The notes beneath the pieces are model-generated. The model worked only from the letters and a program-made list of their open reading frames with translations. It did no database searches and had not been told where the DNA came from. A stretch of DNA of 64,000 nt from Eledone cirrhosa. Lineage: Eukaryota. Positions 23,903-63,001 of the stretch are shown piece after piece. Position 1 is the first letter of the stretch; every line of letters begins with the position of its first letter. The position numbers and the translations under genes are program-made. The stretch lies in NCBI GenBank assembly GCA_964016885.1, contig OZ024741.1:212722001-212786000 (forward strand), in the 5' to 3' direction.

Positions 23903-23944
<42 letters not shown>

Positions 23945-24167
23945 CAATTAAGTTAAAAATGTACATCTACATATGCATACTGAAATACTAGTGTGTATAT
24001 GAATACACACACGTATACATATGTAGGTGTACCAAGTCTTTCACTGGATGCTTTACTGTGAGCAGCCCAGCTATTCTGTATGTAAACACACAGACAAACC
24101 GGTTTTTAGAGTCATACTGGTTTTCGGGGGAACACCTTCCCTCTATTCTCCAGAAAGCCAGACAAGG

Positions 24168-24212
24168 AATATTGAACTAGTTTCGTTGTTGTTACAACTC
24201 ATCAGCAATATT
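24168..24212 (-). ncRNA. Minimal type I hammerhead ribozyme
   Basis: aatattg CTGATGA gttg taacaa caac GAAA c ta g tt caatatt; intact core, 7 bp helix I, palindromic helix III region AACTAGTT. Confidence 0.85.
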
Positions 24213-24297
24213 TACCTATCTACCGGCCCTTCTGGAGAATTGTAAAAGCACATATCGTTATATGCTTTTTCTATGAAAATTAGTAGTGGGCAGACTA

Positions 24298-24305
24298 ATT
24301 TGCAT
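24298..24305 (-). promoter_or_regulatory. Octamer motif ATGCAAAT (snRNA DSE-like)
   Basis: 86 nt upstream of the HHR on the same strand; equivalent sites at 440, 8818, 60194 and 61959. Confidence 0.55.
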
Positions 24306-24426
24306 AGAGTGTGAGTACGCACCGGTTCAGCGGAGACGATAAAAACAAATAACGACTAATTTTCATAGAAAAAGCATATAACGATATGTGCTTTTACAAT
24401 TCTCCAGAAGGGCCGGTAGATAGGTA

Positions 24427-24471
24427 AATATTGCTGATGAGTTGTAACAACAACGAAACTAGTTCAATATT
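24427..24471 (+). ncRNA. Minimal type I hammerhead ribozyme (inverted arm copy)
   Basis: Same motif on the + strand. Confidence 0.85.
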
Positions 24472-24762
24472 CCTTGTCTGGCTTTCTGGAGAATAGAGGG
24501 AAGGTGTTCCCCCGAAAACCAGTATGACTCTAAAAACCGGTTTGTCTGTGTGTTTACATACAGAATAGCTGGGCTGCTCACAGTAAAGCATCCAGTGAAA
24601 GACTTGGTACACCTACATATGTATACGTGTGTGTATTCATATACACACTAGTATTTCAGTATGCATATGTAGATGTACATTTTTAACTTAATTGTTTAAG
24701 CGTCAGTCATACAAAAGTGAGTTACAAACGAAGCGAAATTTAATTTCGTTTCGTTATTTGTT

Positions 24763-24789
<27 letters not shown>

Positions 24790-24795
<6 letters not shown>

Positions 24796-25555
24796 CGTAA
24801 AATAAGAAAATTATAAAATTAACTTACTTACTAAAAAATCTCTTCCAACTAATTAGTTTCTGGAATGGAGTAAATATATTTTCCGAAGAAATTTATGGAA
24901 AATCATTCCGTCATCAGGAAAGTCTTTTTCCGTATAGTTCTCCAGGCATAGCGAGGACACTGGAAACTTATTAAAAAAATAATTCAGTGGAATGGAAATA
25001 GCGATGCGTGGACTGGATTCCAAGCCATTGAGAAAATCACTGTCTCTACGTCCGTGGCAAATTCAAAAAGAATCAATCACGTGACATCGAGGTCAATCAG
25101 TGGAAAGCGAGTGGTTATTAAGACAGCGGCCAGCTTACTACCATAGTAGCAGTCATGGCCAAATATTGCTCGACAAATGAATTGGAGATAATTATAAGGA
25201 ATTTATATCTAGTAACATTTATATACACACAGATGCATATCAATGCTAGCAAATATATAGGTTTTGTCTTATTAACAATGTGGTTCAATGCATGGGTTGC
25301 AGAACAATAATATAAGAGACGTAATGATTTTCTATAAATTTCTTCGGAAAATATATTTACTCCATTCCAGAAACTAATTAGTTGGAAGAGATTTTTTAGT
25401 AAGTAAGTTAATTTTATAATTTTCTTATTTTACGTCTCTCATATTATTGTTCTGCAACCCCATGCATTGAACCACATTGTTAATAAGACAAAACCTATAT
25501 ATTTGCTAGCATTGATATGCATCTGTGTGTATATAAATGTTACTAGATATAAATT

Positions 25556-25560
<5 letters not shown>
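24790..25560. mobile_element. Non-coding HHR element family B (~525 nt monomer) with inverted arm
   Basis: Start agagacgtaa (24791) recurs at 25315, then the sequence flips: 25322-25560 is rc of 24790-24908 joined to rc of 25193-25314. TA tracts at both ends. Confidence 0.85.
24842..24922 (-). ncRNA. Type I hammerhead ribozyme with extended helix II
   Basis: ctttc CTGATGA c ggaatg..cattcc a GAAA ctaattag tt ggaag; covaries with 61106-61187. Confidence 0.8.
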
Positions 25561-25594
<34 letters not shown>

Positions 25595-25606
25595 GTAGAG
25601 AAGATA

Positions 25607-25780
25607 ACTGTTTCTACTTTAGGCACAAGGCCAGCAATTACTCAGTAGATTACTGGTACTTTATTTTATCGACCCCGTAAGGATGAATGAAAGGCAAAGT
25701 CAACCTCGGCGGATTTGAACTCAGATCGTAAAGGGACGTAACTATGCTGGAAACCATGGTGTTCGACCCTCTACCGATAC
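25607..25780 (-). mobile_element. SINE S1
   Basis: rc of S1 consensus. Confidence 0.85.
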
Positions 25781-25919
25781 TAGAAGATAACACATCAGAG
25801 AGAGAGAGATGGTGCGCTATCAGTCAAGCAGGGAAAAACCACCATGGAAGGCAAAGTAGACACATAATAATTAAAAGGATAAATCAAAGTACAAATACGT
25901 ACCTTGATAACTATCTAAC

Positions 25920-26002
25920 ACACACGTACAAATCCAACCGGATCTGTTTCACCAACTAATTTGTTGACAGAAGTGATTAGCCTATGGTTCATCAGCGTGT
26001 GT
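25920..26002 (-). ncRNA. Complete type I hammerhead ribozyme
   Basis: acacacg CTGATGA acca..gctaat..attagt tggt GAAA cagatcc ggtt ggatttg TA cgtgtgt: all three helices, intact core, GUA site. Confidence 0.9.
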
Positions 26003-30998: not shown

Positions 30999-31379
30999 GT
31001 TATGTAATAAACAACATACGGCAATTATTTCATTTACCAGTTGTTTCTTAAAAGCAAACAAAGTTTGCTTTCAATCATCAGAATGAAAAAATCCTGGTGT
31101 ATTTATTGACATTGGATTTTAAAAGCAAAAATATAATCTTTATGAAAGTGAGGCTTGAAGAGGAAGAAGGAAAGGAAACATAAACACACATGCACACACT
31201 CACACACACATACAATTACATACACACACATATATACATACACATATATATACACATATATACACACACACATATATATGTATATATGTACATACACATA
31301 CATACATACACACATATATATCAACATATCCATACATACACATACACACAAATACACAAACGCGCACACACACACATAT

Positions 31380-32069: not shown

Positions 32070-33072
32070 TATACATACACACACATATATATACACATAC
32101 ACATACATACATACACACACAGATATATAAGAAAATACATAAATAATATATATATATATAAAAATAAAAAGTTGGGAATACGACAAATAATAAATAAATC
32201 AATAATTAGAAAACAGTATAAATGTATATAGCTAAATTAGAGCACTCAACAAGTTCCTGGACAAATGATCTATGAAAATAAGCATTAAATCACTGTAAGT
32301 AATTATGCATATACATACACACATACATATACATATATATATATGTATATATATACATCAACACACACAACCATACAAATACACACACATATACATATAC
32401 GTATAAATATACACATATAGGAAAAAGTATGACCCCATGGCAGAGCTCTCGCAAATAAGGTGTGGTAATTCAAGGATAAAATCATCCCGTACTCTATCGA
32501 TGGGTCTATTTTAGACCATTCGAGGGAGTACCAAAGGGGCACAAATAATTGTTCTTTGTGTACCACTGAAAAATTTAGGATTTTACGAAACGTGAAAGCC
32601 ACTTCAGCTTGCCTGAACTCCAAGACCGAGATCTTCAGATGTTGTCCTCACCCACCTGAAATCACATCTGATCTGTAGCTGGATTGCCATTCCTACGATA
32701 ACTCAACCACCCTGAACTTCTTCTCTGCTCTCTACGCCTTACATCCACTACGATTTTTTTACCTTCTGAATTCACTTTCTGTACTTTTATATTCTTTTTC
32801 TCCCTTATATCCCCTTATATTTAAACCTTTTCCTATGTCATATATTTTCCTTATCCCCCCCCCTCTACTTTCTACCTTACCCTTCACATACCCACCATTT
32901 TTATTTTTAGATATTTATTTCTGTGTATATGTGTGTATGTGTGTGTTGCGCATATGTGTATATATGTATATAAATATATATGTATATATATGTATGTGTG
33001 TATGTATGTTTATATATCTGTATGTATATGTATGTGTGTATATAATTGTATTTGAGATGCTTCTGTTGTATT

Positions 33073-33114
<42 letters not shown>

Positions 33115-33690
33115 GTGTGTGTGTGTGCGTGTGTATAATTGTGTGTGTGTATTTTTATATAATTGTTTTTTTCTGTGTATATATATAATAGCCTCAGAAA
33201 CGGCTTGAGCTCTGCCGTGGGGTCATACTTTTTCCTATATGTGTATATTTATACGTATATGTATGTATATGAGTGTGTATTTGTATGGTTGTGTGTGTGT
33301 GTGTAAATATATATATATATATGTATATGTATGTGTGTCTGTATATGCATAATTACATACAGTGATTTAATGCTTATTTATTTGTTGAGTGCTCTAATTC
33401 AGCTATATACATTTATACCCTTTTCTAATTATTTATTTATTTATTATTTGTCGTATTCCCAACTTTTTATTTATATATATTATTTATGTATTTTCTCATA
33501 TATATATGTGTGTGTATGTATGTATGTGTATGTGTATATATATGTGTGTGTATGTATATATATATATATATGTGTATATATATATTTAAGAGTTAAACAA
33601 GTTTTATATGAATACATCTAAGAATGAGTTTTACACACATACATATGTGTGTGTATGTATTTGTATGTATGTGTTTGTGTATATGTAATG

Positions 33691-33739: not shown

Positions 33740-35095
33740 GATACTGATACTCAAAAACTCACCAATGTCCAGTAGTGCTAAGTTTAATATTCTGATCGCA
33801 GACCTGGTATGAGTGATGAAGAATGTGTCCTGCATGTGCGACCCAACTGAAATGGAAAGACACATCCAACACTTCATCAACTGCATGCAGTTCTCTGGCT
33901 ACAACCAAAGAGACAGAGTCAGAGTATACGAAGGAGCCATGGAGAAGTATAAGACCCTCATAGAACTGGACATGAAAGGAATTTGCCCATTATACAGGAG
34001 TAAACCATGGAATAGCTTAGATAGGGAAGGCCACATCATGGTATGACAACCAGAGATACCAGAGTGTCATGTTTGTTGGCGCTATCCCTGGAGGGAAATT
34101 AGCTAACCAGTGTAGAAAGGCCCTGAGAAAGACCCACTTAAAAATTAAGGTGGTAGAAAAGCCAGGAACCACCATAAAATCCCTGATCAGCAGAACCTAC
34201 CATTTTAAGAAAACCCACTGTACTAATAGGAAATGTATCATATGTAAGGTAAACCCCCGGATAAACTGTAAAACTAGAAACGTAGTCTATAGCATAAGAT
34301 GTACAGAGGGTACTTGCAGAAACATGACAACAACATACATAGCCGAGACAGCTCGTAGCATAGGTGAAAGGATAGACCAACACTGGGGGGAACGAAAAGG
34401 AAGAAAAAACTGTTCAGTACTATAAGAACATGCCAGAAAACAACACGACAGGAACATAGACAACATAGAAATTAGAATAATATCTAAACATAGAAATGAT
34501 CCAGCATATAGGCAAATCAGAGATGCCAGTGAAACAGAAAGAAAGAATGGAATAAACAGCACCCAAACAAACAACACTGACCAAAAAAAAGTATAAATAA
34601 ATAGATAGATAAATAAATAAAAAAATACATACACAAGCACAATAACACATATAAACACACACTAGTAAAGATAGAATACATTAACCAATACACAGTCACC
34701 CAATCACGAACACACATCAAACAAAACACTATACACACTCGCAAACGCATGCGCAAAAAAGACAAAATAAAATAAACAAATAAATAAATATATAAACAGA
34801 CTAAATAAAGATGGCATAGAAAATACAATGCAACGGGAGGAAACAATAGCACCACTGACGTTGTTGCAGATGTGCAAGGAAAGAACTTTGATAAACGATA
34901 TATGTGTTTGTGTCTATATTGTATATGTATTATTTTTGACCGTTGGTCAGTCAATGGCAACATTGAGGACCGAATAAATTAGATTGCCGATATATAAGAA
35001 ACAGAAGCGAAAAGCGAAAATCAACCAAACAGTGAGTGTGTTCTGTTATTAATTCTGGCAATATTACACAAATATGACCCTCCCCAAGTATAACA

Positions 35096-39829: not shown

Positions 39830-42800
39830 ATATGGCGGCCGTCGGGGAATAGCCGTGTCTCTAGGGGAGGACGAACCCTCTGTTCTTGGTTGACACTCGT
39901 CCTAGAAGTGGTAACGCGGAATGATTGACCCTTGGAGGTTAAGGATAAAACGCGACAAAATAAAGTAAATGTCAAATGATAAAATCACATACCGGATCGG
40001 CCGTCACCTGGGTCAAAAAGAGCCGCGTCCCTCAGAGAGGAACCAGACTGAGGTCGAAAAATCAGCTAATGGTTCACACCTTCCCATCACTTCGGCGCTG
40101 GAGACCTCCCATAACCGGAATACTCCTACTGAGAGAGAAAAATGATCAAGGGAAGACAATAAAGAAGTTCTTGTGGCTTTCTACACTGCCATGTACTACC
40201 CATCCAATAGATCGAATACAGAACAGACATATATCAACTGGAAAAAGAAACATCCCGAAAACAGCGGCTATATTGACAGTAAAAAACTAGCCAATATACG
40301 AAGAAATATTGTTTTAAAAAAGTTACTAACTGATATAGAAATTGATCAGATCAAAGTCAGCGAAGGGAAAATGAAACATGTGTCAGTGAAAACGAGGTAA
40401 ATTGTAACACTTCGAATCCCAGGGTTGGAGCGGAATCACTGACAACAGATCAAATTAAAGAAAGGATCGAAAAGTTGGAGGGAGTGCATGCTCATGATGA
40501 AACTCAAAATGAAAACAATGAGATCGTAAATGATGAAGAAATGAATGAGAATGAACTTGCCAACTTGAACGATGAAATTATGATCGAATGGATGTAAATG
40601 AAAGAATCTGACATGGGAGAGCGAGACACTCTCCATAAGATCCAGAACTACAAACAGAACCAAAAGATAATACACAAGACTAACATAATTCTCAAAAACA
40701 TTATCATCACAAACAAACTAAACATTACTGATTTAAATCATTTCTATTATGCATCGGCTAAAGTCACCACTCACTTATGTGGAGTGAAAATGACAAAACA
40801 AAGGAATTCTCACAAGAAATCTACTTGGCAAAAGAACATCAAACGCCAAATAAACCTTCTCCGATCTGACATAGAAATTTTAACAAACTACAAAGTAGTT
40901 GAACATGTTAAACAAACTAAAGTTAGAAAATTGAAAAGAAAATACAGTATAAAATCAACAAGTGACATAGACATACTGATAGAAATAATAAAGCAAAAAG
41001 TGTCGGCCAAAGGTGCTGGTATAAGGCGCTTTGAAAAACGATCTAGATTCTATAAGGACAATAATATGTTCAAAAACAACAAAAGAAACTTCTACAGAAA
41101 AAATTGGCAAGTCAACAATAACTGCTAAATCAATACCACCCAAGGAGGAAGTGCAAGAATTCTGGGAAAAGATCTGGGCCGAAGAAAAAGTTCATAATAT
41201 TCATGCCCCATGGATAGACAGACAAATGAAAGATACAGCTCACCTTGAGGAACAAATATGGGAAAATATAACAGTTGAACAGTTGCATTTGGCTCTTAGA
41301 AAAACCAGCAAATGGAAATCCCCAGGAAAAGACAAAATACCTAATTTTTGGATAAATGCCTTCACAGAGTCTCATGAGCTGTTAGCCCAACTTTACAATG
41401 AAATAGTTAAGGAGCCAGAAAAGATACCATCATGGTTAGTAAACGGCATTACATTCCTGCTTCCGAAGAATGATGAGACAAACAATCCCTAAAATTACAG
41501 ACCGATAACTTGCTTGACCACAATGTATAACATTTTAACATCAGTCCTAACTGAATATACATATGACCACCTGATATCAAATGAGCTATTTCCCAATGAG
41601 CAGAAAGGGTGTAAACGAGGCTCATATGGCTGTAAGGATCAGCTTTTGGTTAACAAAATGATACTGGAAGGTTGTCATAATAGACACAAAATATATCAAT
41701 TACTTGGATAGATTATAAAAAAGCATTCGATAGTTTGCCACACAGTTGGATTGAAAAAAGTTTAGACATTTTCAAAATATCTCCCGTTGTCAGGAGGTTC
41801 CTGTCATTCAGTATGAAGACATGGAAAACGACACTCCTTTTGAATAGTGAAAAAAAATCATTGGAAGCTGGAGAAGTTAATATTAATTGTGGAATTTTTC
41901 AGGGTGACTCTTTATCACCGCTTTTATTCTGCATCGCACTTATACCATTAAGTAAAATGCTCAATGAAACAAAACATGGATATAAAGTCTATGACAAAAC
42001 CATTAATCACCTGTTTTACATGGATGACCTGAAACTATTTGCAAAAAATGATGAACAATTGCAAGGGCTATTATCCACTGTGGAGAAGTTCAGTGATGAC
42101 ATTAAAATGGAGTTTGGACTAGATAAATGCGCCAAAGCAACGTTCACCAGAGGAAAGCTGCTGAAGAGTTCAGACATTAATCTTGATCGGGGGAACGTGA
42201 TAAGAGAACTTGATCAAGGAAAACTTACAAATATCTAGGTGTTTGTGAAGGAGACGGAATCAAGCACTCGACAATGAGGTAAAGGATAAGGAAGGAATGT
42301 TACCGCAGAGTAAGAGCAATCTTAAGAACGGAATTGAATGCAAGGAATAGGATCGATGCCATAAACACGCTTGCCATACCAGTAGTAACCTACAGTTACA
42401 ATGTCATCAACTGGTCAAGCACAGAGATCCGTAGGCTCGATACAAAAATTCGAAAATTCTTAACCATGCACAGAATGCATCACCCTAAGGCAGATATAGA
42501 TAGATTATATCTCCCTAGGAAAGAAGGAGGACGTGGGTTAATCCAGTTAGACATTGCGTTAAAAACTGCGACAATTGGATTATCTACATATCTAAGGGAA
42601 TCACATGATTGGATGATCAAACTCGTTTTGAAACACGAAAGCATCAAAAGATCATATTCCATTACAAAAGATGCACAAAGATACAGTAATGGACTACAAA
42701 TTTCAGAAGTCTCATTTACTGCTGAAATGGAAAACACAGAAAAAGCAAAGCAGGTAAAAGTAACTGCAAAGAAAGAACTGCTACAGAAACTGGCTAAGAA

Positions 42801-43605
42801 ATGGCAAGAAAAGCCTCTGTATGGAAAATACCCAGAGCGAGCTAACAATGCTGATGTTGACAAAACTTTAACCCATCAGTGGTTGGCATCCTCCGGACTG
42901 AAATCGTAGACTGAAGGACTGATTATATTAGCACAAGATCAGTGACTGCCAACAAAAACTTACCAAGCCAACATAATAAAAAATGGATGCAACCCATTAT
43001 GCCGTGTATGTAAAAAACAACCAGAGACTATTGATCATATAATTTCAATGTGCAGCCCTATATCCCCAACCGAATACCTAAACAGGCATGACAGAGCTGC
43101 ACAATACATACATTGGATAATGTGTAAGCATTTTGACCTGTCCCATCAAAAGAATTGGTGGGAGCATCAGCCTCCTCCCATACTTGAAAAAGATCACATG
43201 TCAATCTTGTGGAACTTTAGCATCCAAACAGACCGAAAAATAGATGCAAATAGACCTTATATAATACTGAAGGACTTTAAAAAGAGGGTATGCCTACTAA
43301 CTGATATGTCCGTTCCAATAGACAAGAATGTATTTATAAAAACATGTGAATATTCGAGCAAGTGTAAGGACCTGGAGATAGAAATTGGAAAAATGTGGAA
43401 ATTCAGAACTAAAACAATACCAGTGGTTGTAGGCGCTTTAGGAATGATACCTAAGGGGTCTAATGATTACTTATCGCAAATCCCAGGAAACCCGCGTATA
43501 GGACCTTGTTGTCGGACCTTGTTGTCTCTTGAGGTCACTGGTTGTGACTTGGTGATAACTCGTATGAACATCAAGCAAGATAAATGCAACTGTAATAATA
43601 ATAAT
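39830..43605 (+). pseudogene. Decayed R4/Dong-clade non-LTR retrotransposon
   Basis: Fragments WKSPGKDKIPNFW, NEQKGCKRG, GIFQGDSLSPLLF, HLFYMDDLKL, RHD, ANRP(Y)II; multiple stops and frameshifts; ends in (TAA)n. Confidence 0.9.
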
Positions 43606-43820
43606 GATTTCTCGTATAGGCACAAGGCCAGTAATTTTGGGGAGGGGAAAGTCGATTAAATCGACCCCAGTACGTAACTGGTGCTTTATTTTATCGACCC
43701 CGTAAGGATGAAAGGCAAAGTTAACCTCGGCGGGATTTGAACTCAGAATGGCAAGGGCCGTAACTCTATGCGTCAAAGCATGGCGTCCGACCCACTACCG
43801 ATACTGCCAATTCACCGCCC
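43606..43820 (-). mobile_element. SINE S1
   Basis: rc of S1 with variant tail. Confidence 0.85.
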
Positions 43821-44087: not shown

Positions 44088-47000
44088 TCAGATATTCAGG
44101 ACGTATCGGAGGGTTCTTGCTGTTCCAAGCAAGCATGCCTTTTGAAGCGTTCCAAAAAGCGTGAAGGGGCCGATGTTCTTTAACCATCCCTGGAAACTTT
44201 TGGTGTTAGTCCCCAGTGCGCCTATGACAATCGGGATCACTTTGACTTCATGGCAGTTCCAAATCCTTTTCACCTCCCACTTTAGGTCCTGGTATCGGTT
44301 AATTTTCTCCCTCTCCTTCTCTTGCACTCTCGTGTCGAACGGGCAGGCCACATCCACAATCAGGCACGATCTTTTTTCTTTGTCCACAACCACCAGGTCA
44401 GGTCTATTGTGTTCCAGTTTTTTGTCCGTCTGTATCCTAAAATCCCACAGCACCTTCACCTGATTGTTCTCCATCACCGCCTCTGGCCTATGCTCATACC
44501 ATTTCTCAGAATGTGGTAGAATGTTTACTTTGCACAGGTGCCAGTGGATCACCCTGCCCATAACATCGTGTCTCCAGCCCTTATAGTGGGTCTGGGCTAG
44601 GTGTTTACACTCGGACACAATGTGAGCCACAGTCTCCTCTCTCTCTCCACAGATCCTGCACAGTGGGCTGGCCTCCTCCTTGCAGATATGGTGCTTCAAC
44701 CACTTCGTTTTGAGGGCCTGCTCCTGCGCAGCCATTAGCATTCCTTCTGTAGCCTTTTTGAGGTCTCCTCTTCTCAACCAGTTCCATGTCTGTGGATCTC
44801 TAAATTCAGTTTTCTCAAAGAAGGTACTATGAAGGGGTTTTCCCTTAAGGCTGCTCTTCCTCCTTGATGTTATTTCCTCCCTGGACATCCCCTGGCCTAC
44901 TGTCCCCTCCTTCAGTACAGCTCTGAGCATTGGCTCCTTACTATAGGTCACGTATTTGTATAGGTTGTTTTTCTCCATCTGAACACAGTCCTCTATGCTG
45001 ATAAGACCTCTTCCACCCTCAGATCTCCTTAGGTAGAGTCTATCGACATCACTCCTCTTGTGGAACATGTTGTAGATAGTCAATAGCTTCCTAGTCTTCC
45101 TATCCATTTCTTTCTGTTCAGCAACATTCCATCTCAGAATTCCCGCACTGTACCTAATAATAGACACAGCTCGGGAATTTACTGCGCTTATGGCATTTCT
45201 GCTGTTCAGATGTGACTTCAATACGCTCCTTACTCTCCGAATGTATTCAGTTCTTAACAATTCCTTCATTTTTTTGTTCTTTATGCCATCAGCCTCCAGA
45301 ACGCCCAAATACTTGTATCCTTCCTCAGAGTCAATTTCCTTTATCATCTCACCTGTTGGTATCTGGATCCCGTTACTTCTGCTGAACCTACCCCTCTTCA
45401 TCACAATGACTCCACATTTACCAATACCAAACTGCATACATATATCACTGCTGAAAATACGGACAGTGTCAACAAGCACATCCAACTCCTTCTCACTTTT
45501 CCCGAAGAGCTTAAGATCGTCCATGAAGAGGAGGTGATTGATGGTAAGCTCTCCCCTTCCCAACTTGTATCCTGCTCTCACTTTTCGCAGCATAATGGTC
45601 AAGGGCATCAGGGCAAGGACAAACAATAGAGGGGACAGGCTATCTCCCTGGAAGATACCTCTCTTGATCTTCACGCTTCCCAAGGATACTCCAGTTGATG
45701 TCAACTCTGTCTCCCAGGACCCCATACTCCTGCCTAGCAACTGTCTGATGTTATCCGCCACCCTGAAGATCTCCAGGCTTTTGGTGATCCAGGAATGAGG
45801 CACCATGTCAAATGCCTTTCTGTAGTCTATCCATCCCATAGCAAGATCAGTGTGTCTCCTCCTGCAATTCCCCATTACCATCTTATCAATAAGCAACTGG
45901 TCCTTTGTACCACGTGACTTCTTTCGGCATCCTTTCTGTTCGTCCGGTAACAAGTTGTTTGTGTGGAGGTGATGGTAGATTTCCTCAGACACAATGCTCG
46001 TCAACAGTTTCCACATTACGGGCAGACATGTGATAGGTCTATAGTTGGTAGCATCATTACCCTTGATTCGGTCTTTCATTATCAGAACTGTGGTACCTTT
46101 TGTCAACCACTCTGGCACCTCACCCGACACCAAGCAGTCATTGAACATGGCCGTCAGCTTCGGGTGGAGGGATGTTAGATGTTTAATCCAATACCCCTGC
46201 ACACCATCTGGGCCTGGCGATTTCCAGTTGGTTAGTTTTTTGGCTTGTCCCTTAAGAGTTTCAACTGTGATACTCAAATCAGTCTGTTGCTGTGCCTGCT
46301 CACCGATCTCCCTCTGTACTGTCTCAATCCACCCTGCCTGGGCATTGTGTCTAACATCCTGCTCCCATATTCCTCTCCAGAATGTTTTAGTTTGCTCCGC
46401 CCCAGGGATCAAGTCGTTGCCTCTTTCTTTGCCCTCAAGCTGTCCAAACAGCATCTTCTGGTTGTTGTCGAACATGCGGTTCTGTTTATACTGACTGACT
46501 CTGTTCTCGTATCGCCTGATTTTTGCACTCTTTGCTACAATGCGTTGCTTCAATTCCTCTATGATAATATTTAGGTTTTTACTCCTAGTTTTGTATTTTA
46601 TTTCCAGTCTATTTTTAGTGCCTATGTTTTTTAGTGTCCCATTCAGTAGTGACTCAAGCTTTCCTATGTCATTCCTCATTTCCCCGATTTGCCCACTCAG
46701 TCGCTTCTTCCACCACGGCTCTGCTCTTTCTTGTCTGTTGTTTCCTCTCGCTTTTATACCAAGTAGTTTCCTCACCGTATTTGCTGTTGCTTTGAGGATA
46801 TTGTTGCACTGGTGAAGACTCCTCGCCTCAAGGTATGGGATGACTTTGTTTACCTTAGCTGTTGTTTCTTTTAACTTTTTCCTGTCTACAAATCTTAGGT
46901 TCATAGGTCTCCCACTATCATTGTTCAATTCATCTACCACTAAATTTAGGATGTCAACCGAATCTTGTCCTAGCCCGTCAGCATTCATCTCCTCAGTGGC

Positions 47001-47480
47001 CGTATCTCTGTTCCAGGTATTATTTATCTCAGTACTCAGATCATTGTCTGCTTCGGGTGGTTCCTCCGTTCTCAGGACCTCCTCACCTTCATTTCCCACC
47101 GGCTCGCTTGTCTGGCATACTACACCCGCCATCTCCAAGCCATTCTCTCTGCTCAGTTCCTCCAGTTCCAGCTCGCTTATCCACCCATTAGTTCTTATTA
47201 CCCGAGCCTGCCCGGCCAATTTTTGTTCATCTAATTTAAATAAACCAATCTCGTTCCAGATGTTATGCATCCGTCTCCTGTAGCCCCTCTCCTTGGGGTT
47301 ACTTTTCAGGTAGCATTGCATAACAGTTCTATTCAATTCTTTCGTCCAGTTGGTTCTGGCCCCTTTCCTTCTTCTCCTTCCTCCAACATCAGCAGTATTT
47401 GGTTGACAGTCAGGTTCCTGCTGCTGAGCCAGGGGGCACCTGTTGGGTGAGAGTCTGTCACATGACGTTCTAGTCTCCAT
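44088..47480 (-). CDS. Intact R4/Dong-clade non-LTR retrotransposon ORF (RT + CCHC + restriction-like endonuclease), 1130 aa
   Basis: NYRPITCLP, EQKGCRK, WIDYRKAFDMVPH, GIFQGDSLSPLLF, HLLFMDDLKL, CRIC..HIVSEC, RHD, RPDLVV..DVACP..EKINRYQDL; ~75 bp 3' UTR ending in (TAA)n at ~44013. Confidence 0.95.
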   Translation of the reverse strand: METRTSCDRLSPNRCPLAQQQEPDCQPNTADVGGRRRRKGARTNWTKELNRTVMQCYLKSNPKERGYRRRMHNIWNEIGLFKLDEQKLAGQARVIRTNGWISELELEELSRENGLEMAGVVCQTSEPVGNEGEEVLRTEEPPEADNDLSTEINNTWNRDTATEEMNADGLGQDSVDILNLVVDELNNDSGRPMNLRFVDRKKLKETTAKVNKVIPYLEARSLHQCNNILKATANTVRKLLGIKARGNNRQERAEPWWKKRLSGQIGEMRNDIGKLESLLNGTLKNIGTKNRLEIKYKTRSKNLNIIIEELKQRIVAKSAKIRRYENRVSQYKQNRMFDNNQKMLFGQLEGKERGNDLIPGAEQTKTFWRGIWEQDVRHNAQAGWIETVQREIGEQAQQQTDLSITVETLKGQAKKLTNWKSPGPDGVQGYWIKHLTSLHPKLTAMFNDCLVSGEVPEWLTKGTTVLIMKDRIKGNDATNYRPITCLPVMWKLLTSIVSEEIYHHLHTNNLLPDEQKGCRKKSRGTKDQLLIDKMVMGNCRRRHTDLAMGWIDYRKAFDMVPHSWITKSLEIFRVADNIRQLLGRSMGSWETELTSTGVSLGSVKIKRGIFQGDSLSPLLFVLALMPLTIMLRKVRAGYKLGRGELTINHLLFMDDLKLFGKSEKELDVLVDTVRIFSSDICMQFGIGKCGVIVMKRGRFSRSNGIQIPTGEMIKEIDSEEGYKYLGVLEADGIKNKKMKELLRTEYIRRVRSVLKSHLNSRNAISAVNSRAVSIIRYSAGILRWNVAEQKEMDRKTRKLLTIYNMFHKRSDVDRLYLRRSEGGRGLISIEDCVQMEKNNLYKYVTYSKEPMLRAVLKEGTVGQGMSREEITSRRKSSLKGKPLHSTFFEKTEFRDPQTWNWLRRGDLKKATEGMLMAAQEQALKTKWLKHHICKEEASPLCRICGEREETVAHIVSECKHLAQTHYKGWRHDVMGRVIHWHLCKVNILPHSEKWYEHRPEAVMENNQVKVLWDFRIQTDKKLEHNRPDLVVVDKEKRSCLIVDVACPFDTRVQEKEREKINRYQDLKWEVKRIWNCHEVKVIPIVIGALGTNTKSFQGWLKNIGPFTLFGTLQKACLLGTARTLRYVLNI

Positions 47481-47909
47481 TTCACCGTTATTCGAACTGT
47501 TTATGTTCGATATTTAAACACTCTTATCGAGGATTGGCGAATGTATGTTTACATAGCCATCTGTGGATCCGCCATCCCACTTGGCCCTTGTGTGGCATTA
47601 TCACCACGCTGTATACGAACACACATAAATAAACAAACACACAGGCAGAAAGGGCCCCAGAAATGAATAAGCATAAGTTTCATTGTAATGTAGTGTTCGA
47701 ATGTCTGACTTAGTTTTAGTTTTTTAAGTTTTACTTTTTCCCCCCTCTTCTCTGTCCGTCCGCCTGCTTCTCTCTTCATTCTTATTTTCTTTACGTTTTG
47801 GGGGTTTCTTTTTTTTTTGTTTTTGTTTTTCTCTGTTTGTTTTTCTCGTTTTTTGCTGTTGTTGCTGTGCTGCTTTGGTTTTGTTGTTTGTTTTTTCTTT
47901 ATTCTTTTG

Positions 47910-52423: not shown

Positions 52424-52565
52424 AAACGAAGGAAGTGTGGTAAGGAACCAAGTGGACTATAACGCATCAGAGTACTCAATACTTAGGGTAGTAGAGTGGT
52501 TAATAGGAAAAAGTTCAAGACCCCAACGACAGGGCTCAAACCATTTCGACGGCTATTTCTGGATA
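52421..52565 (-). mobile_element. PLE-type 3' tail fragment
   Basis: rc of 59610-59742; related to 33190-33240. Confidence 0.65.
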
Positions 52566-53045: not shown

Positions 53046-53583
<538 letters not shown>

Positions 53584-53680: not shown

Positions 53681-53912
53681 TGAATGTATTAGTGTATTTT
53701 GCAATACACTGTATGCTTAATTAAAAACGTCTCACTTACTTTAAATTTTCAGCAAACAGGGGAGCATTTTTGCTGAAAATTTAAAGTGAGGCTGTAACTA
53801 CTCTAAAACAATAGCGTAAGGTCTTCGAAATGTTTTTAATTAAGCATACAGTTTATTGCAAAATACACTATATATATATTCATATATATATCGCTATTTC
53901 AGAACACCAATA
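53681..53912. mobile_element. Short foldback element (family F)
   Basis: IR 53681-53728 / 53832-53883; other copies at 10030-10230 and 55436-55727. Confidence 0.65.
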
Positions 53913-54851: not shown

Positions 54852-54924
54852 TTTATTTTATCGACCCCGTAAGGCTGAAAGGCAAAGTCAACCTCGGCGG
54901 GATTTGAAACATTCGATTCAGATG

Positions 54925-55328
54925 ACATTTATTGTATTCACAATGTAGAGCGAAATTTTCTTTTTCATTTGAATTTGGCAAAGCCGGCCATTTATCGCTC
55001 GTATACAGGAAACTGACTGGCCAGTCTGCTGATATACGAATCTGGCTGATCAGTGGACCTGCTGATATGCAGATCTGACTGATCAGTCACTGTTTATTTT
55101 AGAAAATAGCATATATTTTCACTAGTTCTGACAGTTGGCAGGTAAAAAGTGAGCTGTACTGATGAAGGGTGATACCAAGAAATATTAGTGTCTGCTGTTC
55201 TGTATACATGCCAAAACAAGAGCAAGAATGAAGGGTTCATTCTACTGACATGGCTTTAAAAATGAGGCTTGTTTGCATAATTGCAAGCGAAACGAATGTT
55301 AATATTAATATTCGAAAAACGCATATTA
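54925..55328 (+). mobile_element. Non-coding HHR element family C
   Basis: HHR at 55151-55200: gagctgta CTGATGA a gggt gat acc aa GAAA tattagtg TC tgctgttc; homologous to rc of 59770-60300. Confidence 0.75.
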
Positions 55329-55435
55329 CTGTTACTATATATATATATTTATTAACATAACAGATTAAAGTTTAAGCAAAGAATCGGTGCTTTCACCCTT
55401 AACGGGATCTTCTGAAACTAAAAAAGTATATATAT

Positions 55436-55727
55436 TAGAATTGGTGCTCTGAATTAGGGATGTATACATGAAGATATATATATAATATTTGGCAATATAT
55501 TGAATGCTTAATTAAACAAATTTTGAAGACATTCCGCTATTATTTTAAAGTAGTGACTATCTATATTACTTACTTCTTTTTTCAACAGTCTGTCAGCTTA
55601 TCTCCCTTTGGTTGTTGTAAAAAGAAGTGACATAGTCACTACTTTAAAATAATACCGCAAGGTCTTCAAAATATTTTTAATTAAGCATACAGTATATTGC
55701 CAAATATACTATATATATACATTCATA
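55436..55727. mobile_element. Family F foldback
   Basis: IR 55460-55560 / 55632-55727. Confidence 0.65.
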
Positions 55728-56709
55728 TATATATATATATATTTCGTTTCTGAATTTGTTTAGCAAGATTCTTTATCTGAAATCGTGTGTTGAAACCGAT
55801 ATTGTTATACTTTGGGAGGGTCATGTTGCCAATAAGAAACACACGCACCAGTTGCTTTCACTTCAATTTATTATATATTTATAAATTTATAAATCTACAA
55901 ACTTATAAATTTCTGGTTGGTTGGTTCTACAACCAGATAGTTGTTTATATATAGTAATAGTCCTTTCGTCACACACTCTGTGACCTCTTCAGTGACTGGG
56001 GATTCCTTTCTTTGTTTCTGTGCCTTTCCTTTCTTCTGTCCTACGCCATTTTGTTTCTGTGTGTGTGTTGTGTGCTCAGTTTGCGCATGCGCCACATCCG
56101 GGTGTCTGAGTGTGTTTGTGTTCATTTATCTATTTGTTTATTTATTTATTTATTTATTTACATGTTGTTGGTTGGTTGTTTGTTCTATGTGTGTGTGTGT
56201 TTTCATTTTTTCCTTAATTGTAAGTTGTGATGTTGCTGTTCCACACATATTTTCTATTTAATTTTGGTTGTAATTCTTTTATGCTTACTGCCTCTGTAAT
56301 TTGCCTAAACATTGCATCTTTTCTGTGTGTGGATTCTATTTTTATTTCTATGTTCTCTAATTTACCCTTGTGTTCTATCTTAGCATGTTGGTAGAGCACA
56401 GATGATTCTTTATTATCTTGAAGGTCTCGCCAGTGTTCATTTATTCCCCTATACTACGAGCTGTCTCACCTATGTACACTATATGTTTGTTTCTACATTG
56501 TCCTTCAGTACATCTTATGCTATACACTACATTTCTAGTTTTACAGTTAATATGGGGGCTTATTTTACAGGTAATACATTTCTTATCTATACATGAGGGT
56601 CTTTGGAACGGGTATGTCTTGCTAATAAGTGTTTTTACGGAGGTACCTGGTATTTCTACTATCTTAATATTGAGTTTATGTTTATTTAGGGCCCTTCTAA
56701 ATTTGTAAT

Positions 56710-59067
56710 CCCTCCGATAAATCATTCGACCTGCGACGAGTCCACGCCACGACTTTACCATTTAACAAACGCACGCAGTTGCCGTCGCAGGTCGATGAAC
56801 AAACAGAAGCACAATTTAGTATAGCTAAATCCGAACTTAGAAATATTATAGAACAGTATGGCAAGAAGCATAATAGAATAGAGGCCCAGCAACTGGGAGA
56901 AAAATCTGCAAATGGCTTGCGTAAGCTCATGCAGCGCTCACGTAATGGAGAGATAGCATGCTTTCCAACAGACAAGTCTGGCAGAATGTCGGTTGACAGC
57001 CTGCCAAACTACATCCAGGCAATGCAACCCCACATCACTAACACAAGAGAGGTAACACCACAGGAGCATGAGGATAGAGAAAAAGCCCTCAATGCCCATA
57101 TGGTGATGTGGACGAATATAATGCAGCCCAACAAAAGGACTGCTAACAACTTCCAGGCCTGGAACAATGACGTGCCGGCGTTGTATGGGCTTCGAAAAGA
57201 CCATAAAACGGGCTGTGACCCTGTCGCGGGACCACCAACACGGCCAGTCTGTGGAGCTAACATTGCTAGTAACTACAGACTGTCCTACTTCCTCTCCCTG
57301 ATCATACGCCCCATCATTGAGATGTCCCCAGATGTATGTGACAGCACGGAGGACCTCCTCAGCAGAATCGGCGTGAGTAACCGATCTGGGGACCTAACAA
57401 ACTGCATAATAGGCAGTATGGATGTTGTGTCCCAGTATCCATCTATTGACGTGGATTTTGCTGTGGAGAAATGCGTAGAAATGATCAGCGAGAGCAAGGT
57501 TGAGTTCCGTGGGATTGATACCAGTGAGCTGGGACTTCTACTTAAGCTTACCCATAGTAATAGTTACCTAGACACTTATGACCTTAGCAACCTGTGCCCT
57601 ACAAGACCAGCAAGAGGCAGACCACCTACCATTACCTCAATGACCAAGAAAACCCACACAGAGAGATGGAACGTGTGGACCAGAGCAATACGGACACCCG
57701 AAAACCACGATGAACTGAAGAAAATGATTGCACATGCGGTAAAGGCCAGCATAAAATTAACCCTTAAGGAACATATGTTCAAATTTAATGGTAAAACATA
57801 TGCCCAAGAGGAAGGAGCAGCCATTGGTGTTAGCATTGCAGGCGACATAGCTAACTTATTCATGGTATGGTGGGACAGTAGACTTAAACAAAAACTTAAA
57901 TAACAATTAGAAGACAGCTTAACCCTGATAATGTACTCCCGCTACGTAGATGATATAAACATCGTAGTTAAGACACCCCCACTAAAGAAAAGTCAGGAAC
58001 TAGAGAAAAACACAATGGAAAGCATCCAGCAAATAGCAAACTCCATCCACCAGAGCATTAGAGTTACTATAGACTACCCAAGTAGACACCCCAACCATCG
58101 ATTACCTGTACTAGACACAGAGCTCTGGTTAGATACCATTAACAACCAAAAACAAATCCTCCATTCCCATTATGCCAAACCCATGACTTACAAACATCTG
58201 ATCCACCGAAACTCGGCCATTTCGGACCATACCAAAATCAACATACTGATTGCGGATTTGGTACGGGTGATGAGAAATGTGTCCCGCATGTGCAACCCCG
58301 AAGAACTAGAGAGACACATACAACTCTTCATCCACCGTATGCAGTTCTCTGGCTACAATCAGAGAGATAGAATCAGAGTGTATAGAGGAGCCAGAACCAA
58401 ATGGGAAAAAATGGTAAATAATGACATAAATGGGACCTGCCCCTTGTATAGGAGCAAATTTTGGAATAGAATAGAAAGAACTAGGAACAAGGCCAATAGA
58501 ATAAACTCATGGTATGATTGCAATAAATACCAGAGTGTAATGTTCATCAATACAACCCCTAGAGGCGAACTAGCCTACAAATTTAGAAGGGCCCTAAATA
58601 AACATAAACTCAATATAGATAGTAGAAATACCAGGTACCTCCGTAAAAACACTTATTAGCAAGACATACCCGTTCCAAAGACCCTCATGTATAGATAAGA
58701 AATGTATTACCTGTAAAATAAGCGCCCATATTAACTGTAAAACTAGAAATGTAGTGTATAGCATAAGATGTACTGAAGGACAATGTAGAAACAAACATAT
58801 AGTGTACATAGGTGAGACAGCTCGTAGTATAGGGGAATAAATGAACACTGGCGAGACCTTCAAGATAATAAAGAATCATCTGTGCTCTACCAACATGCTA
58901 AGATAGAACACAAGGGTAAATTAGAGAACATAGAAATAAAAATAGAATCCACACACAGAAAAGATGCAATGTTTAGGCAAATTACAGAGGCAGTAAGCAT
59001 AAAAGAATTACAACCAAAATTAAATAGAAAATATGAGTGGAACAGCAACATCACAACTTACAATTAA
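56710..59067 (+). pseudogene. PLE reverse transcriptase + GIY-YIG endonuclease (1 stop, 2 frameshifts)
   Basis: PTDKSG, LYGLRKDHK, RPVCG, SMDVVSQYPSI, QEEGAAIG, YSRYVDDI, LPVLD, CITC..CKTRNVVYSIRC..YIGETARS; TAA at 57901, frameshifts at ~58616 and ~58837. Confidence 0.92.
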
Positions 59068-59277
59068 GGAAAAAATGAAAACACACACACACATAGAACA
59101 AACAACCAACCAACAACATGTAAATAAATAAATAAATAAACAAATAGATAAATGAACACAAACACACACAGACACCCGGATGTGGCGCATGCGCAAACTG
59201 AGCACACAACACACACACAGAAACAAAATGGCGTAGGACAGAAGAAAGGAAAGGCACAGAAACAAAGAAAGGAATCC

Positions 59278-59325
59278 CCAGTCACTGAAGAGGTCACAGA
59301 GTGTGTGACGAAAGGACTATTACTA
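59278..59325 (+). ncRNA. PLE-associated minimal HHR (inverted copy at ~55954-56000)
   Basis: agtca CTGAAGA g gtcaca gagtg tgtgac GAAA g ga c TA ttact; helix I has a mismatch. Confidence 0.65.
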
Positions 59326-59478
59326 TATATAAACAACTATCTGGTTGTAGAACCAACCAACCAACCAACCAGAAATTTATAAGTTTGTAGATTTATAAAT
59401 TTATAAATATATAATAAATTGAAGTGAAAGCAACTGGTGCGTGTGTTTCTTATTGGCAACATGACCCTCCCAAAGTAT

Positions 59479-59549
<71 letters not shown>

Positions 59550-59551
<2 letters not shown>

Positions 59552-59742
59552 AACGAGTAGGACCCCGACGGCTGAGCTCAAGCCGTTTCGACGGCTAATT
59601 CAGTCCAGAATTAGCCGCCTAAACGGCTTGAGCTCAGCCATCGGGGTCCTACTCGAAATCTATTACCCACTCTACTACCCTAAGTATTGAGTACTTTGGT
59701 GCGTTATGGTCCACCTTGTTCTCTACCACATTTCCTTCGTTA
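59550..59742. mobile_element. Mini inverted PLE-type tail (foldback)
   Basis: IR 59554-59601 / 59608-59655; homologous to 33190-33240 and rc of 52421-52565. Confidence 0.8.
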
Positions 59743-59754
59743 TATATATATATG

Positions 59755-60382
59755 TAAGAAAATTTCGTTCTGATCAGTCAGATCTAAATATTACCAGATC
59801 CACTGATCAGCCAGATTTCAGATTTGTATATCAGCAGACTGGCCAGTCAGTTTCCTGTTTGCGAGCGATAAATGGCCGGCTTTTCCAAATTCAAATGAAA
59901 AAGAATATTTCGCTCTACATGGCTGAAAAATATCAATGTAATCTGGGTTTTTCGAATATTATTAAATATATTTGATTCCTTTGCAATTATGCAAACAAGC
60001 CTCAATTTTATAGCTTTGTCAGTAGAATGAACACTTCATTCTTGCTCTTGTGTTGGCATGCGAACAGAACTGCAGACACTAATGTTTCTGGGTTTCACCC
60101 TTCATCTGTACAGCTCACTGTTCACCGGCCAAGCTGTCAGAGCTAGTGAAAATATATGCTATTTTCAAAAGTACACAGTGACTGATCGGCCTAATTTGCA
60201 TATTAGCAGACTGGCTGATCAGTCAGATCTGCATATTAGCAGATCCACTGATTAGCCTGATTTGCATATCAGCAGATAGCCCAGTCAGTTTCCTGAATAT
60301 AACATAGTTATAAAATTGAGGCTTGTTTGCATAATTGCAAACGAATCGAATGTTATTATTAATATTCGAAAAACCCAGATTA
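59755..60382. mobile_element. Family C element: ~1.2 monomers (~445 nt) plus inverted arm
   Basis: 59771-59856 recurs at 60216-60296; 59940-60013 is inverted at 60306-60382. HHR on - at 60067-60116; octamers at 60194 and 60260. Confidence 0.8.
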
Positions 60383-60445
60383 TATATATATATATATTCA
60401 TATATATATACACACACATAAACACACACACACACACACACACAC

Positions 60446-61053
<608 letters not shown>

Positions 61054-61105
61054 GACGTAAAATAAGAACATTTTAAAAATTAAAAATTAACTTACTAAAA
61101 TGTTC

Positions 61106-61187
61106 ACTCCAACTAATTAGTTTCTGTAATGGGATAAAGATAGTTACGCAATGTAACCATCGAGAATTCATTACGTCATCAGGGAGT
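61106..61187 (-). ncRNA. Type I hammerhead ribozyme, family B relative
   Basis: actcc CTGATGA c gtaatg..gatggttac attgc gtaactatc..cattac a GAAA ctaattag tt ggagt; lies in element 61050-61225. Confidence 0.85.
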
Positions 61188-61222
61188 CCGTACATCTGGA
61201 CGCATATGTTGGTAAATATACT

Positions 61223-61367
<145 letters not shown>

Positions 61368-61531
61368 CATATATATATACATATACGTGTTTACAGTCTC
61401 GCACGTTCCCCTTATTTACGTGTCCCAACGACTTTATTTAGCCGTTGCTCGCACCAACTGGAGGTATATGGTCTTTAAAGCGATGAAATACCAATGAAGG
61501 TTGGAAGATCACTGATGAAGGACTAACTTTA

Positions 61532-61606
<75 letters not shown>

Positions 61607-61607
<1 letters not shown>

Positions 61608-62677
61608 ATTAAGTTAAAAATGTACATCTACATATGCATACTGAAATACTAGTGTGTATATGAATACACACACGTATACATATGCAGATGTAACAAGTCT
61701 TTCACTGGTTGCTTTACTGTGAGCAACCCAGCTATTCTGTATGTAAACACACAGACAAACCGGTTTTTAGAGTCATACTGGTTTTCGAGGAAACACCTTC
61801 CCTCTATTCTCTAGAAAGCCAGACAAGGAATATTGAACTAGTTTCGTTGCTGTCACAACTCATCAGCAATATTTACCTATCTACCGGCCTTTCTGGAGAA
61901 TTGTAAAAGCACATATCGTTATATGCTTTTTCTATGAAAATTAGTAGTGGGCAGACCAATTTGCATAGAGTGTGAGTACGCACCGGTTCAGCGGAGACGA
62001 TAAAAACAAATAACGAAACGAAATTAAATTTCGTTTCGTTTGTAACTCACTTTTGTATGACTGACGCTTAAACAATTAAGTTAAAAATGTACATCTACAT
62101 ATGCATACTGAAATACTAGTGTGTATATGAATACACACACGTATACATATGCAGATGTAACAAGTCTTTCACTGGTTGCTTTACTGTGAGCAACCCAGCT
62201 ATTCTGTATGTAAACACACAGACAAACCGGTTTTTAGAGTCATACTGGTTTTCGAGGAAACACCTTCCCTCTATTCTCCAGAAAGCCAGACAAGCATATA
62301 ACGATATGTGCTTTTACAATTCTCCAGAAAGGCCGGTAGATAGGTAAATATTGCTGATGAGTTGTAACAACGAAACTAGTTCAATATTCCTTGTCTGGCT
62401 TTCTAGAGAATAGAGGGAAGGTGTTTCCTCGAAAACCAGTATGACTCTAAAAACCGGTTTGTCTGTGTGTTTACATACAGAATAGCTGGGTTGCTCACAG
62501 TAAAGCAACCAGTGAAAGACTTGTTACATCTGCATATGTATACGTGTGTGTATTCATATACACACTAGTATTTCAGTATGCATATGTAGATGTACATTTT
62601 TAACTTAATTGTTTAAGCGTCAGTCATACAAAAGTGAGTTACAAACGAAACGAAATTTAATTTCGTTTCGTTATTTG

Positions 62678-62682
<5 letters not shown>
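61607..62682. mobile_element. Family A element: ~1.47 tandem 467-nt monomers plus inverted arm
   Basis: aattaagttaaaaatgtacatc at 61607 and 62074; flip at ~62294; HHRs at 61829-61873 (-) and 62347-62388 (+); octamer at 61959. Confidence 0.9.
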
Positions 62683-62719
<37 letters not shown>

Positions 62720-62723
62720 GATA

Positions 62724-62812
62724 ATAATTGTTTCTACTATTTGGCACAAGGCCAGCAATTAACCAGTACATTACTGGTACTTTATTTTATCGACCCCGTA
62801 AGGATGAAAGGC
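62724..62812 (-). mobile_element. SINE S1 3' fragment
   Basis: rc core and tail; a similar fragment lies at 54850-54909. Confidence 0.8.
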
Positions 62813-63001
62813 AATATTATTTATACTTATACATACACTATATATAACTATAAACATGAAAGGTCAGTAATTCATTACCACCTTATTACCAGTATATATA
62901 TACATACAGAAATTATACATATATATATTACATATATATATTACGTATATATATACATATATAAATATTACATATATATATACATATATAAATATAGCAA
63001 C

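Follow-up and report, generated by a model that had tools for sequence, protein, structure and literature searches.

Hammerhead-bearing units with a Penelope-like insertion structure in the genome of Eledone cirrhosa

A 64-kb stretch of the Eledone cirrhosa assembly (contig OZ024741.1, positions 212,722,001 to 212,786,000; the whole of it is referred to as the window) holds three families of short units, A, B and C, which carry hammerhead folds and are built into the DNA in the manner of Penelope-like elements (PLEs). We are highly confident that PLE-type machinery mobilised them, and they are likely to be non-autonomous PLEs or animal retrozyme-like elements, members of these groups that have not been described before. 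As for how they were copied, it seems just about probable that the reverse transcriptase (RT) and endonuclease of a PLE copied them into (TA)n from linear, partly uncleaved tandem RNA; taking PLE-type mobilisation as given, a linear template becomes somewhat probable.

The unit of family A is 467 nt long and non-coding, and we number it as a circle from the first base 3′ of the predicted ribozyme cut. Its insertion at 62 kb consists of a left arm on the minus strand (61607–62294; 688 nt or 1.47 units, from circle position 9 round to 229) and an inverted right arm on the plus strand (62292–62681; circle 375 to ~303), of which a ~70-nt tail crosses the unit junction. In RNA sense, the left arm has its 3′ end in (TA)n at circle ~229 and its 5′ end 8 nt short of a second cleavage site. 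As the original prediction had held, this arm reads through one full unit and restarts before flipping; the restart spans 221 nt, and the two passes (61607–61827 and 62074–62294) differ at 1 of 221 positions. At that position, 61812, T is found in the first pass and in the right arm, and C in the second pass, the latter being the base at the equivalent place in 225 of 225 reads of run X21 and in ~99.5% of the depth of run X2. Of 322 columns compared between the arms, 4 show a difference, every one of them in ribozyme loop II. Two changes private to loop II of the left arm, at 61850 and 61854, are A-to-G on the RNA strand and could have arisen by ordinary mutation or by editing of the RNA template ahead of its copying.

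A second family A insertion lies at 23944–24762, with arms at 23944–24355 (minus strand; circle 287 to 232) and 24352–24762 (plus strand; circle 355 to 303) that have one hammerhead fold each and are identical except at the junction edge. Both A insertions use a common pair of staggered 3′ end sites, circle ~230 and 303, and differ in their inversion points. The conserved ends are backed by loose ends of X2 contigs that run into TA, which among the rows listed fall at 62000 (12 contigs), 62074 (3 contigs) and 62045 (1 contig), and two further A inversion joints were found in runs X1 and X21. All four A arms read through the cleavage site, and of 8 known 5′ ends, 2 are found no more than 13 nt past the cut (at 9 in the window and ~12 in a contig of X1; p ∼ 0.02, post hoc).

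This read evidence comes from 4 of 23 listed sequencing runs; organisms D–Q, with small shares, were left out, and organism C (X6) amounts to 11 contigs. Run X2 and the window share 0.63 of words and is a different sequence, so that window bases cannot be checked against it. Run X1 covers the whole A unit and, its sample kind being unrecorded, was not counted as RNA evidence; summed contig depth was not taken as copy number. Two candidate signals were discarded: the ends of X21 RAD reads as element ends, since they coincide with AATT sites and were read as restriction cuts, and joints in the reads that 'go back 467', an artefact of the chosen unit rotation.

For family B, the original prediction of a restart after ~525 nt held in part. 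The unit is 524 nt, and in the insertion at 24790–25558 the left arm (24790 to ~25324, minus strand; hammerhead core at 24917) is followed by an inverted arm (25318–25558) that does pass the unit junction, continuing for ~117 nt as a tail. The direct restart, at 25314, shrinks to ~11 nt, 7 of which are common to the start of the inverted arm. A diverged B fragment (61049–61190, minus strand) has a hammerhead fold and the same 3′ end as that insertion. Family C is represented by an old insertion at 59770–60391, comprising a ~445-nt unit with an 81-nt second pass on the minus strand, an inverted arm at 60302–60391 and a hammerhead fold at 60108–60075 with the variant core CAGAUGA. The direct repeat from which the ~445-nt periodicity had been proposed (59770–59857 against 60215–60295) is weak when taken alone, being 82% identical over 88 nt and lying within internal subrepeats, and the second pass is too old for testing pass identity. 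The continuity of the unit is confirmed by a second C copy (54919–55340, plus strand, opposite to the 60-kb copy), which makes about one full turn of the C circle, aligning once round it at 79%, and has the standard CUGAUGA core.

The three families show no similarity to one another. As predicted, none holds a credible open reading frame: the longest ATG frame on the ribozyme strand is 19, 17 and 28 aa in A, B and C, respectively. On the strand opposite to family C, an ATG frame of 120 aa spans the unit junction (59938–60214 / 59770–59880, plus strand). Judging from the list of open reading frames and from blastx against 68 homologues of the PLE protein in the window, which returned 0 matches for the units, the C 120-aa frame included, coding capacity for RT or a GIY-YIG endonuclease is absent from all three.

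These observations bear on the idea that the units are ordinary pLTR ends left by 5′ truncation of autonomous PLEs, other copies of which would carry coding sequence upstream. Close opposite-strand hammerhead pairs have been ascribed to truncated PLEs in an earlier study (PMC4209133), and the PLE in the window has a geometry identical to that of A, B and C. Upstream of one full A unit, however, stands another stretch of family A rather than a reading frame, C closes on itself in two copies, and the blastx matches to PLE-like proteins that coding sequence should give are missing; we regard this explanation as very unlikely. The units may themselves have descended from pLTRs.

A descriptor scan placed one type I hammerhead fold in each unit, in agreement with the one hammerhead per monomer noted originally. 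In the 62-kb A insertion, the left-arm fold (61829–61873, minus strand) has a GUU site, a predicted cut between 61836 and 61835 and a 2-bp palindromic stem III, and the right-arm fold (62347–62388, plus strand) has a loop II unlike that of the left arm. The descriptor sites are 61866 (−), 62354 (+), 24205 (−) and 24434 (+) for A, 24917 (−) and 61182 (−) for B and, with the core variant, 60108 (−) for C; the 55-kb C copy, with its bulged stem II, was missed by the descriptor and its fold was recognised by eye. Strict-core hammerhead loci number 8 in the window versus 0 in each of 30 Markov-shuffled windows. Rfam gave 0 matches at the gathering threshold; below it, Hammerhead_HH9 matched the four A copies (E 1e-7 to 7e-5), there was no hammerhead row for B or C, and miRNA and sRNA rows were rejected as fold-back or low-complexity noise. 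Hammerhead motif scans of metagenome and viral contigs yielded 0 and 0.

Read phase aside, the fold shows a compensatory-type base-pair change in stem II: in X21 reads, the two bases of the pair 61847/61858 vary about equally often (157 of 313 and 163 of 337, as per-site counts without phase). In reads of the related organism, the cleavage triplet GUU is replaced by GUC in 56 of 288, and hammerhead core positions are absent among the best 40 of 64 variant rows. Two ribozyme copies are predicted to co-fold via stem III, at −38.4 versus 2 × −17.5 kcal/mol for A and −38.0 versus 2 × −13.0 kcal/mol for B. No copy in the window carries a same-strand pair of ribozymes, the longest run being 1.47 units.

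All insertions share one plan, in which two arms are joined 5′ to 5′ and their 3′ ends point outward, on the ribozyme strand, into (TA)n. Such runs stand at both ends of all 4 two-arm A/B/C insertions. The same 4 insertions have an inverted 5′-truncated copy on the 5′ side, a more-than-unit (partial tandem) structure is seen in A, B and C, and the stagger of the 3′ ends that forms the tail is ~70 nt in A, ~117 nt in B and ~170 nt in C, compared with 60 nt in the PLE of the window. Partial tandems, an inverted 5′-truncated copy, a tail and microsatellite targets make up the PLE signature as given in PMC8557442. A PLE protein assayed in vitro cut the two strands of its target, extended each of them and began copying at two internal RNA sites, which define the tail (PMC11167929).

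The comparator within the window is a broken PLE of autonomous type at 55742–59483 (plus strand), with both ends in (TA)n, an inverted 5′ arm at 55802–56707 and its tail at 55742–55801. It carries what we take to be an RT with YVDD and a GIY-YIG endonuclease, together with a CX4CxxC linker. Its label as a PLE is based on these motifs and on its build; Pfam assigned no family to its reading-frame pieces, and the best match of the piece at 57904–58626, among 68, is a protein labelled Octopus vulgaris, at 68% identity. A short two-arm insertion of the end of this element (53165–53512) repeats both its end points and its tail. The linker matches the Neptune/Nematis type described in PMC8557442, where that type is tied to (TA)n targeting. 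Because A, B and C are built identically to this neighbouring element, they are likely its hitch-hikers, and an element of its kind is the likely helper.

A second, diverged PLE remnant (33786–34924; a separate end piece at 141–348) is 69–72% identical to the 56–59 kb element and has a Zn-finger linker and a GIY-YIG motif. In the PLE 3′ ends, at 59285 (+), 55992 (−) and 212 (−), a hammerhead core with its stem II can be made out, but neither a stem III nor a cleavage triplet is clear.

At the level of sequence, blastn (word size 7, E < 0.01) matched none of the three families to either PLE 3′ region of the window. The sole stretch that A shares with the PLE tail end is a 10-mer, GAAACGAAAT, which ends the PLE tail and forms a hairpin just before the tail end of A. 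It has 9 matches versus 0.12 expected, 7 of the 9 in the PLE and family A (sites at 55741–55750, 53164–53173, 62015–62037, 24743–24752, 8443 and 21212), and is possibly a recognition signal common to both. A and B copies lie in common TA arrays at two separate places (24763–24789 and 61049–61607), which suggests repeated insertion into those target runs.

The window as a whole is AT-rich and abounds in (TA)n runs, LINE pieces and fold-backs, with TA runs on both sides in 10 of 20 listed fold-backs. Other fold-back inserts lie at 32074–33554, 52426–52563, 53692–53868, 55485–55707, 59554–59655 and 60618–60996, some of which may be further PLE-type two-arm insertions. This setting gives some ground for an origin at the DNA level, by local tandem duplication and fold-back (template switching in TA runs, or a MITE- or Helitron-like process) with the ribozyme as a passenger, the more so as inverted repeats invite conversion. 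Against such an origin, independent insertions have a common 3′ end pair yet different inversion points, in each of three unrelated families all 3′ ends of the ribozyme strand face outward, and the right arms contain cross-junction sequence that the 24-kb left arm never reached. We consider it largely refuted and extremely improbable.

The original prediction of a template longer than the unit, circular or multimeric, and of retrozyme-like units stands in this form, though without the circle being singled out by permutation, since internal initiation by a PLE on uncleaved tandem RNA looks alike (PMC11167929). The template of the 62-kb A insertion comprised more than one unit and measured at least ~760 nt if one RNA served both arms. 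As the A arms read through an intact cleavage site, a cleaved linear monomer is excluded as template. The unit continuity, arm geometry, conserved ends, hammerhead folds and PLE-like build observed here would all be produced if a source locus elsewhere, with at least two head-to-tail units, were transcribed and a PLE protein acting in trans nicked both strands of a TA microsatellite. cDNA synthesis would start at two fixed internal RNA sites (circle ~230 and 303 in A), each cDNA would run back through the intact hammerhead into the preceding unit, and the two truncated cDNAs would be joined 5′ to 5′ by a few bases of microhomology, giving inverted arms and staggered ends. For cleavage the ribozyme would have to dimerise, and it may also determine where the RNA has its 5′ end.

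Since the arms of the 62-kb A insertion differ in loop II, the copying seems to have drawn on two distinct ribozyme copies. Together with the base at 61812, the 5′ ends near the cut and the lack of a same-strand ribozyme pair, the differing loops are small signs in favour of a linear, heterogeneous template. The differences at 61812 and in loop II could also stem from later mutation, gene conversion, switching between circles or assembly error. The window holds no tandem source array, and a lineage passed on by linear RNA throughout would lose length to 5′ truncation if its tandems were not regenerated.

An alternative is that monomers released by the ribozyme are closed by a host ligase into circles of 445–524 nt, round which the PLE protein copies from two internal sites. 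Consistent with circles, each of the three units continues across its own ends and there are arms that span the cleavage site; the circular monomers are predicted to fold well (z = −10.7, −4.4 and −4.8 for A, B and C; 40 shuffles each), and the ends of the A monomer are predicted to pair over ~30 nt, a pairing that would keep them close enough to be ligated. The two-sided variation of the stem II pair in X21 reads and the identity of the 24-kb A arms up to their junction edge also agree with it, and circles are reported for comparable units of coral, mussel and axolotl (PMC7229834). The folding is not specific to a circle, however, as the antisense strands also fold well (z = −5.3, −2.0 and −5.3). 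A single monomer circle predicts identity, whereas the passes and arms of the 62-kb A insertion differ, which counts against the single-circle reading proposed originally; no arm reaches two units, and no window copy has the same-strand ribozyme pair. Ribozyme cleavage is, moreover, dispensable for a PLE in vitro, where ribozyme mutants insert equally well (PMC11167929), and 8 of 9 Xenopus dimers stayed uncleaved in vitro (bioRxiv 10.64898/2026.07.22.740005). A circular template is thus slightly disfavoured, and we think this route rather unlikely.

In its broader form, the proposal would have octopod genomes host several families of ribozyme-made circRNA, copied by rolling-circle target-primed reverse transcription by a Neptune-type PLE protein from two fixed internal starts, one per target strand. 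We doubt it slightly more; if true, it would be the first direct genomic footprint linking circRNA retrozymes with the PLE mechanism. Rolling-circle reverse transcription had been called established for retrozymes, but in PMC7229834 the circles were demonstrated and their role as RT template was a hypothesis, one that PMC4209133 had put forward for PLEs in 2014. Nor would divergent RT-PCR alone, put forward as a check, discriminate, because genomic partial tandems yield an identical product.

Linear and circular RNA accumulates from animal non-LTR retrozymes, which consist of tandem units with type I hammerheads (PMC7229834). Like them, A, B and C are small, AT-rich, non-coding and self-paired, have a single hammerhead of type I whose palindromic stem III is tiny, and co-occur with PLEs; unlike them, the copies form inverted pairs in (TA)n rather than tandem arrays, stay below a dimer at no more than 1.47 units, and are described here at the DNA level. 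Retrozymes in the strict sense have at least two consecutive complete ribozymes in tandem, which the window copies lack, so that as strict retrozymes these would at most be offspring copies. The tail and inverted arm of the PLE signature are visible on A, B and C and are not described for retrozymes in the portions seen of PMC7229834 and bioRxiv 10.64898/2026.07.22.740005. The latter argues that animal retrozymes are non-autonomous PLE derivatives, with cleavage in 1 of 9 dimers.

With EN+ PLEs (Neptune/Nematis; Poseidon of Anolis), A, B and C share the partial tandem, the inverted 5′-truncated copy, the one-end tail, the (TA)n target and a hammerhead near the 3′ end (PMC8557442, PMC4209133 and PMC11167929). 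They differ in having no RT/endonuclease frame, in RNA-sense start sites of A that are U-rich rather than AC-rich, in tails of ~70, 117 and 170 nt against a published 30–40 nt, and in bearing no pLTR likeness to the two PLE ends in the window. Plant LTR retrozymes are likewise non-autonomous and hammerhead-bearing, but have a type III ribozyme, LTRs, PBS/PPT and 4-bp target duplications (PMC4918200, PMC5680766 and bioRxiv 10.64898/2026.07.22.740005), whereas A, B and C have a type I ribozyme and are not flanked by a pair of LTRs.

We found no cephalopod precedent for such ribozyme elements in the literature outside subscription journals and repeat libraries; a 2026 repeat annotation of Octopus vulgaris reports recently active PLE families, and the word 'ribozyme' occurs 0 times in its main text, the part seen (PMC13282606). 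A, B and C imply no new class of element and are PLE/retrozyme members not yet described in cephalopods, probably octopod ones. Whether circular or linear tandem RNA serves in the movement of PLEs and animal retrozymes has been an open question since 2014, when PMC4209133 proposed that PLE copies longer than the unit come from a circular template. The link between PLEs and retrozymes has until now been argued from co-occurrence and pLTR similarity; units with the full PLE insertion signature are evidence that PLE machinery moves retrozyme-like units. As the arms exceed one unit, comparing them pass by pass in a long-read assembly offers a cheap, countable test between circle and multimer.

Several other elements were observed in the window. 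An uninterrupted RT frame of 1141 aa (Pfam RVT_1) at 44088–47513 (minus strand) is LINE-type, and a broken LINE-type relative lies on the opposite strand at 40598–43659. A high-copy SINE-like repeat of ~200 nt occurs at 659–881 and in about 15 other places (e.g. 25599–25781 and 62718–62814), and pieces of it sit immediately behind the B insertion and behind the A insertion at 62 kb. Another hammerhead fold of type I at 25927–25995 (minus strand), with a stem I of 8 bp, a stem III of 9 bp and a GUA site, is unlike those of A, B and C; by its predicted stems it could act as a monomer, its z being just −1.3. Hammerhead-core-like sites also occur beside TA runs at 31035–31081 (−), 30349 (+) and 61512 (+), and the latter two have a common stem II start, possibly marking a fourth family.
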